A DNA stretch of 64,000 nt, taken from contig CAYLQT010000010.1 of the NCBI GenBank assembly GCA_964386035.1, positions 14,963-78,962 of the forward strand. The letters are read 5' to 3'. Below the pieces are notes generated by a model. It saw only the letters and a program-made list of their open reading frames with translations. It ran no database searches and had not been told where the DNA came from. This stretch comes from an uncultured Clostridium sp. (GTDB lineage: Bacteria > Bacillota > Clostridia > Oscillospirales > Acutalibacteraceae). Of this stretch, positions 30,389-30,865 are shown piece after piece. Position 1 is the stretch's first letter. Every line of letters starts with the position of its first letter. The position numbers were made by a program, and so were the translations under genes.

Positions 30389-30745
30389 TTAGACTTCCGT
30401 CTCTCTGATTCCGAGGCTGACCGAAAGGGCTTCATCAACTCTGCCCATATCCGTTCCGCCGAGTGCGCCCATCTTTTCTTTCAGACGCTTTTTATCAAGC
30501 GTTCTCACCTGTTCGAGCAAAACTATAGAATCCTTGGCAAGTCCGCATCCGTCCGCATTGACTTTTATATGCGTGGGAAGGTCTGTTTTATACCGCTGAC
30601 TGGTTATCGCCGCCGCTATCACGGTGGGGCTGAATCTGTTGCCGACATCGTTTTGCACAATGAGCACAGGTCTTATGCCTCCCTGCTCCGAGCCGACAAC
30701 GGGGCTTAAATCGGCATAGTAAATGTCTCCCCGTTTAACTGTCAT
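30389..30745 (-). CDS. mazF: MazF/PemK family endoribonuclease (NdoA/EndoA-like), no adjacent antitoxin
   Basis: [45 protein letters not shown]...[14 protein letters not shown], nearly collinear with B. subtilis NdoA. Confidence 0.96.
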   Translation of the reverse strand: [118 protein letters not shown]

Positions 30746-30781
30746 TTTGATCACTCTCCGTTTTTTATTGTCCGGCAATAG

Positions 30782-30811
30782 TATTTTTGCCTGACAAATG
30801 CACGATTAAAC
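30782..30811 (-). promoter_or_regulatory. sigmaF-type (forespore) promoter candidate for mazF
   Basis: GTTTA-N15-GGCAAAAATA on minus strand, 36 nt upstream of ATG; matches GYWTA-N15-GGnnAnAnTA. Confidence 0.6.
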
Positions 30812-30865
30812 ATCGACTTTAAATCGGGGAGCAAAAATTTCAAGTCACTTTATTATATGTCCGTT

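Follow-up and report, generated by a model that had tools for sequence, protein, structure and literature searches.

MazF toxins are normally halves of toxin-antitoxin pairs, the physiological role of which is disputed. The locus described here raises the question of how a MazF endoribonuclease gene could be kept with no antitoxin gene beside it. It lies in a 64-kb stretch of DNA (64,000 nucleotides (nt) of contig CAYLQT010000010.1, hereafter the window) from an uncultured Clostridium sp. of the family Acutalibacteraceae, in which an earlier note, made from the letters of the DNA, had proposed an orphan mazF under a sigmaF-type forespore promoter. By scanning one genome per species, 80 further loci encoding a MazF with 76-97% identity were collected, the taxon labels of which are mostly Acutalibacteraceae, Oscillospiraceae, Ruminococcaceae or simply Clostridia; together with the window, the comparative set comprises 81 loci. 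The answer that we favor, which as a whole has about an even chance of being correct, is that of a domesticated, stand-alone MazF of which only the transcripts initiated in the forespore, at a proximal promoter termed P2, would be translated. The features on which the argument depends are the following.

30389..30745, minus strand: mazF coding sequence, 118 amino acids (aa), ATG at 30745 and TAA at 30391..30389, a predicted EndoA/NdoA-type endoribonuclease
30750..30759, minus strand: extended Shine-Dalgarno (SD) sequence GGAGAGTGAT, conserved in most orthologs
30782..30811, minus strand: P2, with -35 box GTTTA (30811..30807), 15-nt spacer and -10 box GGCAAAAATA (30791..30782)
30815..30846, minus strand: leader hairpin (GACTTGAAAT / ATTTAAAGTC), predicted to present the C-rich GCTCCCCG (30832..30825) in its loop
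30727..30733, minus strand: CGGGGAG, mazF codons 5-7 (Arg-Gly-Asp), the proposed pairing partner of the leader element
30852..30880, minus strand: P1, an upstream promoter-like element, TGCACA-17-TATAAT, the -10 region of which reads CATATAAT (30859..30852)
30341..30374, minus strand: intrinsic-terminator-like hairpin after mazF (-23.3 kcal/mol), followed by ATTTG

MazF and the search for an antitoxin

The gene is publicly annotated as 'type II toxin-antitoxin system PemK/MazF family toxin', and its product matched the Pfam family PemK_toxin (PF02452) with an E value of 7e-34 and 116.7 bits (cut-off 23.1), residues 4-110 being aligned with profile positions 1-108 of 109. Identity to the Bacillus MazF of 7BXY/4HKE was 72/113 (64%), and end-to-end alignments with 7BXY, 4HKE, 4ME7, 4MDX and 1NE8 gave E values of 1e-43 to 5e-45. 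The Arg of GGIRP and the Thr of AAIT, from which the earlier note had recognized an intact NdoA-like enzyme, are both present and aligned with the solved EndoA structures; we take these catalytic residues to be Arg25 and Thr48 in the numbering of B. subtilis EndoA. The fold is probably the same as that of EndoA, and RNase activity can be predicted from the retained motifs. EndoA-family enzymes cleave UACAU, and by analogy a cleavage of this type would be expected of the window MazF. A depletion of TACAT was considered as a possible signal of this target, and 21 and 23 copies were counted on the two strands of the window vs ~64 expected; since the counts are equally low on both strands, the depletion reflects composition and is uninformative on the MazF target.

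The start of a longer, TTG-initiated open reading frame (ORF; start at 30778) was rejected as the true mazF start, because the ATG at 30745 is preceded by the conserved extended SD sequence, and GGAGAGTGAT presumably resembles the complement of the 16S rRNA 3' end. GTG or TTG start codons occur in 19 of the 81 orthologs (listed loci: L006-L009, L011, L014, L016-L019, L041, L048, L053, L054, L060, L071, L074 and L077). In one ortholog (L049), 22 codons are followed by a premature stop, and this gene could be a pseudogene or an assembly error. Throughout the 80 species, MazF shows the above 76-97% identity with its catalytic residues intact.

The search for an antitoxin was directed at both sides of the gene. 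The gap between mazF, which is monocistronic in the window, and the upstream ORF (30866..31384) is exactly 120 base pairs (bp), as the earlier note had estimated, and in the 80 loci the 85 nt preceding the mazF start never contain the end of an ORF of at least 50 aa. By using B. subtilis EndoAI, the sequence of which was verified against PDB 4ME7_E, as a query for phmmer --max, a set of 15,046 six-frame ORFs, taken from the window and from the 80 loci (+/-6 kb), was searched and gave no homolog, the best E value being 2.8. A protein homology search aimed at the border with relatives that have MazE listed only close relatives. The small ORFs in the intergenic space of the window included rpmF and nothing antitoxin-like. 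Moreover, the genes upstream of mazF differ between the 80 loci, as do those downstream, which are often convergent, and no conserved downstream partner gene was present among them. Two candidates were considered and rejected: the downstream gene, because downstream genes vary and are often convergent, and the upstream lipoprotein, which is exported and thus not a plausible antitoxin, and which tblastn could detect in only 6 of the 80 loci. The adjacent, co-transcribed antitoxin gene of a type II mazEF system is thus missing from the window locus, and its absence characterizes the clade and is no peculiarity of one genome.

The proximal promoter and its calibration on spoIIR

The -10 box of P2 ends 36 nt before the mazF ATG, and a conserved TG at 30777..30776, downstream of this box, suggests a transcription start near 30776..30774. 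The pattern GWTTA-N15-GGNNANANTA has one match in the whole window (30811..30782, i.e., P2) vs 0.07 expected, at the place where the earlier note had reported a GTTTA-N15 motif. Conservation upstream of orphan mazF genes in related genomes, which had been put forward as a check, was extensive: GWTTAW-N15-G(G/C/T)YMAAAMTA ends 22-42 nt upstream of the mazF start in at least 75 of the 81 loci. A Gibbs sampler run with no prior recovered the -10 block G-(G/C/T)-(C/T)-(A/C)-A-A-A-(A/C)-T-A, with key positions present in 79-81 of the 81 loci, and a TG 4 nt downstream of the block. Of 75 distinct sites anchored on the -10 block alone, 61 had GWTTAW on the upstream side at a distance of exactly 15 nt, and in another 7 the distance was 14 nt. 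The spacer is variable in sequence, with almost no information, and fixed in length, and a matrix built from the P2 sites had almost no other matches in ~0.9 Mb of flanking sequence. The combination of invariant boxes, an uninformative spacer and rarity elsewhere points to a promoter signature rather than an RNA structure.

The promoter of a canonical forespore gene of the same clade was used for calibration. As stated in the earlier note, the window contains spoIIR, and its presence implies that the source organism probably sporulates.

55301..56050, minus strand: spoIIR, true ATG at 55930, promoter GAATA-N15-GTCCATAATC

A metagenome scan with SpoIIR provided 31 distinct upstream regions from relatives, the promoters of which follow G(A/T/C)(A/T)TA-N15-G(T/G)C(C/A)A(T/A)A(A/C)T. 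Their -35 boxes are GAATA (12), GTATA (11), GTTTA (3), GATTA (2) and GCATA (1), so that the GWTTA form found at mazF accounts for 5 of ~29, and one relative's spoIIR reads TGTTTAA-N14-GGTAATACTT, which is nearly the mazF motif. Similar boxes have been mapped in C. difficile: the sigmaF/G promoters of gapN and spoVAC have GTTTA and those of CD0347, CD2762 and CD3610 have GATTA as -35 boxes, and the -10 boxes GGTAAAACTA (tepA) and GGTAAAAATA (spoVT) are identical to variants of the mazF P2 (Saujet et al. 2013, PMC3789822 Table S6). GWTTA is a minority form among these mapped forespore promoters as well (~6/41, as read from the same table). Based on the architecture shared with the clade spoIIR promoters and the mapped C. 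difficile promoters, P2 is assigned to the sigmaF/sigmaG forespore promoter class. A G upstream of the -10 box is a mark of sigmaF and a terminal A a mark of sigmaG, and spoVT, a gene under dual control, has both (PMC3789822), as does P2; the two sigma factors are inseparable here by sequence, and either would be a putative assignment. The claim of a full match to the sigmaF consensus was too strong, since GTTTA departs at one position from GWATA, the usual -35 box.

Two other readings of these boxes were examined and rejected. The -35 box might be kept by pairing with codons 3-5 (GUUUAA/UUAAAC); A5 is invariant while its would-be partner is A, C or T, and the absence of covariation excludes such pairing as the principal constraint. 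Inspection also spoke against sigma54 for GGCA...TTGC, the offset being 14-15 nt, not 12. As to the cause of the fixed TT in the mazF -35 box, the codon 3-5 pairing fails to account for it. From its predicted start, P2 would give a short leader of ~25-35 nt with a strong, exposed SD sequence.

The leader element, the distal promoter-like element and the mazF RNA

The C-rich element is always located 6-35 nt downstream of P1 and upstream of the P2 -35 box. Because this position is upstream of the P2 start, only longer transcripts carry the element. Its core TTGCTCCCCG (30834..30825) is conserved in ~42 of the 81 loci, and CTCCCCG within it is the exact complement of mazF codons 5-7 (CGG GGA G), GCUCCCCG being the leader segment proposed to pair with CGG GGA. 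In the long leader, the element is paired with codons 5-7 in the minimum-free-energy fold (z = -3.3), and RNAalifold on 20 aligned leaders predicted this pairing as the only consensus structure.

The codons themselves appear to be constrained at the synonymous level. (C/A)GG GGA co-occurs with the element (counts 27/15/3/36; Fisher p = 7e-8, not phylogeny-corrected), whereas loci without the element have CGC, CGA or AGA with GGC, GGA, GGT or GGG at those codons; elsewhere in the mazF genes, Gly is mostly encoded by GGC and Arg mostly by AGA. The association recurs in at least six separate places on the mazF tree. In addition, several lineages show complementarity through variant sequences: CUCCAC/GUGGAG, at the SD sequence, in L034, L038 and L044, UCCCCA/UGGGGA in L035 and UUCUCCC/GGGAGAA in L057. 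Duplexes of the element with its own initiation region have a mean energy of -13.7 kcal/mol vs -9.7 kcal/mol with the regions of loci lacking the element (42/45). On this comparative evidence, the leader contains a conserved segment complementary to the SD sequence or early codons, with compensatory variation between lineages, and the pairing may repress translation. A short upstream ORF in the leader (30751..30843, 30 aa) was considered and rejected: L001 and others keep neither its frame nor its stop, and many loci have GCG, ACG or TCG in place of its 'start'. The in-frame ATG of this rejected ORF is directly before the -35 TTTAA.

A comparable arrangement was found at spoIIR, where two segments are complementary.

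55973..55964 and 55944..55935, minus strand: spoIIR anti-SD arms, AATGCTGTCC and GGACGGTATT (SD region), respectively

The spoIIR anti-SD is 10-14 nt long and lies just upstream of the sigmaF -10 box, the first 4 nt of which it overlaps. As register shifts made fixed-column counts unreliable, the helix was judged by duplex energy and by comparison between own and other loci. The arm duplexes have a mean energy of -13.3 kcal/mol and a mean z of -4.1 vs shuffles, and covariation of the arms was seen across at least five sequence classes of relatives, some via G-U pairs (loci L081-L160). The anti-SD pairs with its own SD region at -12.9 vs -7.6 kcal/mol with other loci, the own region being better in 17 of 20. 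The 5' arm precedes the sigmaF start and would therefore be present only in RNA that reads through from secG, and this parallel raised our confidence that the arrangement at mazF may restrict translation to transcripts from the forespore promoter.

The earlier note had seen no sigmaA promoter in the gap. P1 (30880..30852) contradicts this, as it matches the sigmaA consensus at 10 of 12 positions, and its pattern ttCAC-N16-17-G(C/A)ATA(T/A)AAT(A/G) is kept in ~67 loci. P1 fits sigmaA, with a slightly long spacer, and the sigmaK/E pattern AC-N16-17-CATAnnnTA alike, and the sigma factor that uses it can be named only putatively from these boxes.

Metatranscriptomic data provide evidence that the gene is transcribed. 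In the metatranscriptome X21, a related-strain contig (30938..30584) joins the lipoprotein ORF, the leader and part of mazF, which represents either read-through RNA or contaminating DNA. A clearer case is an isolate-derived locus (L002) encoding a MazF with 95% identity and an ATG at 6001. The X25 contigs at this locus cover only 5891..6369, i.e., the leader, mazF and the terminator, at a depth of 10-13, while the neighbors of mazF over 12 kb have a depth of only 0-3; in the runs X25, X26 and X31, no other gene of the 12-kb neighborhood is covered in full or reaches the depth of mazF and its 110-nt leader. The related-strain RNA contigs stop at the position equivalent to the mazF terminator (L002:6369). 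A discrete, monocistronic mazF RNA with a ~110-nt leader including the C-rich element thus exists in vivo and is comparatively abundant. Together, P1, leader, P2, SD, mazF and terminator form a unit that is kept across Oscillospirales relatives while the flanking genes differ. Of the original forespore interpretation, the uncoupling from an adjacent antitoxin and the forespore-class motif have been borne out, while the view of that motif as the sole promoter is not supported, given the conserved P1, the long-leader RNA and the X21 contig.

The proposed model, its alternatives and its implications

In the proposed model, P2 (GWTTAW-N15-GGYAAAAMTA) would be used by sigmaF and/or sigmaG and would yield a short-leader mazF mRNA with an exposed SD sequence. 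Transcripts from P1 or from read-through would carry the C-rich element, which would pair with mazF codons 5-7, or with the SD sequence in some lineages, and prevent the initiation of translation. Synthesis of MazF would thereby be confined almost entirely to P2-initiated mRNA and hence to the forespore, and promoter choice plus a cis-acting RNA would take over the safety role of MazE. Analogy with EndoA-family enzymes and with the sporulation-controlled mazEF of C. difficile makes it plausible that the enzyme acts in RNA turnover or dormancy of the forespore. A broader version is tentative, and we consider it doubtful in its entirety: that transcript architecture alone secures an antitoxin-free MazF across Oscillospirales, that an anti-SD upstream of the sigmaF start also insulates spoIIR, that both reflect a general, undescribed form of compartment-specific translation, and that MazF is a core factor of spore development or dormancy.

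Several observations weigh against the proposed model. About half of the loci have no C-rich element. The pairing is invariant inside the main clade, covariation being found only between lineages and not corrected for phylogeny. The modeled accessibility of the initiation region drops only slightly in the long vs the short leader (0.41 vs 0.49), and the trend is similar where the element is missing (0.46 vs 0.51; difference p = 0.06). As the folding effect is modest, the functional claim for the leader rests on the comparative evidence. At the RNA level, only long-leader mazF RNA was seen in the gut metatranscriptome contigs, and the 5' end of the X25 RNA (L002:5891) falls within the -10 box of P1, ~9 nt upstream of the position at which a P1 transcript should begin. 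Regarding P2, the -35 box of mazF is GWTTA and never GWATA in every locus with the motif, and GTTTAA-N14-GG also resembles a sigmaB-type consensus (PMC9847131, PMC7494833). Finally, the antitoxin search covered 64 kb of the source genome and +/-6 kb in relatives.

The last of these points leads to the possibility of a split toxin-antitoxin pair, in which a MazE-type or non-homologous antitoxin encoded elsewhere would neutralize MazF and the leader would serve another purpose. A discrete and comparatively abundant mazF mRNA in the gut would be risky with no safeguard, and Myxococcus offers a precedent in MrpC/MazF-mx. Still, no adjacent antitoxin occurs in 80 species despite varied gene contexts, and the leader complementarity together with the synonymous codon constraint points to control at the RNA level. 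We regard a split pair as unlikely, and it would in any case be compatible with a forespore P2 and would not exclude the proposed model.

Another explanation concerns P1, which could be a mother-cell promoter of the sigmaK/sigmaE type, making mazF a two-compartment sporulation gene with a function such as mother-cell lysis, as proposed for C. difficile MazEF. P1 matches the C. difficile pattern AC-N16-17-CATAnnnTA and individual sigmaK promoters such as that of CD1133 (TCACA-N16-AATATACT; C. difficile Table S7), the conserved G(C/A) directly 5' of TATAAT is not required by sigmaA, and C. difficile mazEF is under sigmaE control (Saujet et al. 2013, PMC3789822). On the other side, P1 is also sigmaA-like (TTCACA/TGCACA, 17-18 nt spacer, TATAAT), its -10 region starts with AATA, not CATA, in ~1/3 of loci, and the X25 RNA 5' end is not at the expected P1 start. 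The mother-cell reading is, in our judgment, rather improbable.

The resemblance of P2 to sigmaB promoters suggests that a stress sigma factor of group 3, sigmaB-like or other, might recognize it, and mazF would then be a stress-induced gene. The consensus is GTTTAA-N12-15-GGGTAT in B. subtilis and WGWTT-N13-17-(G/T)GGTWA in C. difficile (PMC9847131, PMC7494833), so that the -35 region TGTTTAA/TGATTAA of mazF fits both, the 14-15 nt spacing to GG is suitable, and the GGTAAA of many loci is close to (G/T)GGTWA. The T at -35 position 3 is invariant across the mazF loci, unlike at spoIIR, and sigmaB and sigmaG boxes overlap at C. difficile trxA1B1 (PMC10880999). Nevertheless, hardly any site has the third G of GGGTAT, the sigmaB -10 box (2/56), the conserved -10 block runs on to A-A/C-T-A as in sigmaF/G boxes, and spoIIR of relatives itself uses GTTTA and GATTA. 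Moreover, sigmaB is to our knowledge rare in Clostridia outside C. difficile. A stress promoter is thus considered quite unlikely. That mazF is a decaying toxin gene with chance promoter-like sequences and no function, as the premature stop of L049 and the 19 GTG/TTG starts might suggest, is strongly disfavored and barely credible given the conservation of MazF with intact catalytic residues in 80 species, the near-invariant non-coding boxes amid a variable spacer and flanks, and the metatranscriptome contigs.

The surroundings of mazF contain the following genes.

30866..31384, minus strand: upstream neighbor ORF, a 172-aa predicted lipoprotein with a signal peptide and an LFGC lipobox
31409..32977, minus strand: nnr, upstream of the lipoprotein ORF
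29216..30181, minus strand: hprK, downstream of mazF, with its own promoter TTGGAA-17-TATAAT

The lipoprotein (30866..31384) has no Pfam or NCBIfam match. Fast-evolving lipoprotein ORFs of 150-180 aa lie between nnr and mazF in many relatives, and similar-sized ORFs occupy the same position in ~30 loci. nnr is located upstream of mazF in 27 of the 80 loci and hprK downstream in only 3; the terminator (30374..30341) followed by hprK had been correctly read in the earlier note. The order nnr - lipoprotein - mazF may be likened to that of B. subtilis ydcC - alr - ndoAI - ndoA, minus alr and the antitoxin. The gene content of the window (valS, ftsK/spoIIIE, dnaE, pfkA, whiA, rapZ, murB, a clpC-like gene and ruvABC, in addition to der, pgi, spoIIR, secG and parCE) is that of a core chromosome, not of a mobile element.

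Some further observations were made in the window. An rpmF-like small ORF (ribosomal protein L32; 47370..47561, minus strand) with a CxxC...CxxC zinc ribbon was found within an apparently empty 507-bp gap. A 193-aa protein with a CFI-box-CTERM domain (NF041770, E 3e-22) is encoded at 62641..63222 (minus strand), directly followed on the same strand by a 65-aa acidic ORF (62450..62647, minus strand), and a 137-aa ORF at 61763..62176 is similar to the N-terminal region of RelA/SpoT. In three large gaps (51421..52455, 1035 bp; 6759..7433, 675 bp; 38169..38828, 660 bp), neither a convincing ORF nor an Rfam family at gathering score is present; the same holds for Rfam families over the whole window, and a search of 29900..31500 with E up to 10 gave only two chance snoRNA matches.

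Several known systems share parts of this arrangement. The B. subtilis ndoAI-ndoA pair (EndoAI/EndoA, MazEF-bs) has a toxin of the same length and with the same catalytic Arg/Thr (E 1e-43 to EndoA). In contrast to that pair, the window mazF has no EndoAI/MazE upstream or within 64 kb, and in contrast to the B. subtilis alr-mazE-mazF-rsb context it has its own tandem promoters and a leader element. In Myxococcus xanthus, MazF-mx is a solitary developmental toxin, has no cognate mazE and is controlled by MrpC. There, in another phylum, a transcription factor acts as the protein antitoxin, whereas the candidate safeguard in the window would be promoter choice plus RNA pairing in cis; no protein partner of the window MazF was identified. 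In hok and tisB, the long primary mRNA is inert via its 5' structure and a form with a shorter 5' end is active. The long mazF transcript would similarly be inert through 5' pairing and the shorter form active; unlike hok and tisB, MazF is an RNase, not a small membrane peptide, the short form would come from an internal promoter instead of processing, and no antisense RNA was found at mazF. The C. difficile mazE-mazF (CD3462-CD3461) likewise encodes a MazF of a spore-forming member of the Clostridia with a link to a sporulation sigma factor, but it retains the antitoxin and the operon and depends on a mother-cell sigma factor, while the window mazF has no adjacent antitoxin and a proximal promoter of the forespore type. 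The clade's own spoIIR sigmaF promoter has the same bipartite architecture and spacing as P2 and its own anti-SD upstream of the start; at spoIIR the anti-SD overlaps the beginning of the -10 box and the -35 box is mostly GWATA, whereas the mazF element lies upstream of the -35 box and mostly targets codons 5-7.

Although the gene family itself is already known, no description of a link between orphan MazF, the forespore and Oscillospirales, or of the leader feature, was found in full-text searches of the literature. The clade-wide orphan state of mazF, its conserved forespore-type promoter, the tandem promoters with a complementary leader and the spoIIR parallel appear to be undescribed.

On the reading proposed here, an entire lineage of spore-forming bacteria that are abundant in the gut would have lost the antitoxin of a highly conserved MazF, and would have kept or acquired sporulation-type promoters and a safeguard at the RNA level. 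If true, this would be a clear case of a toxin of a toxin-antitoxin system domesticated as a developmental enzyme, and it would offer a testable route to the role of an mRNA interferase in spore formation or dormancy. The parallel with the spoIIR anti-SD further suggests that cell-type-specific genes may be shielded from read-through at the level of translation.

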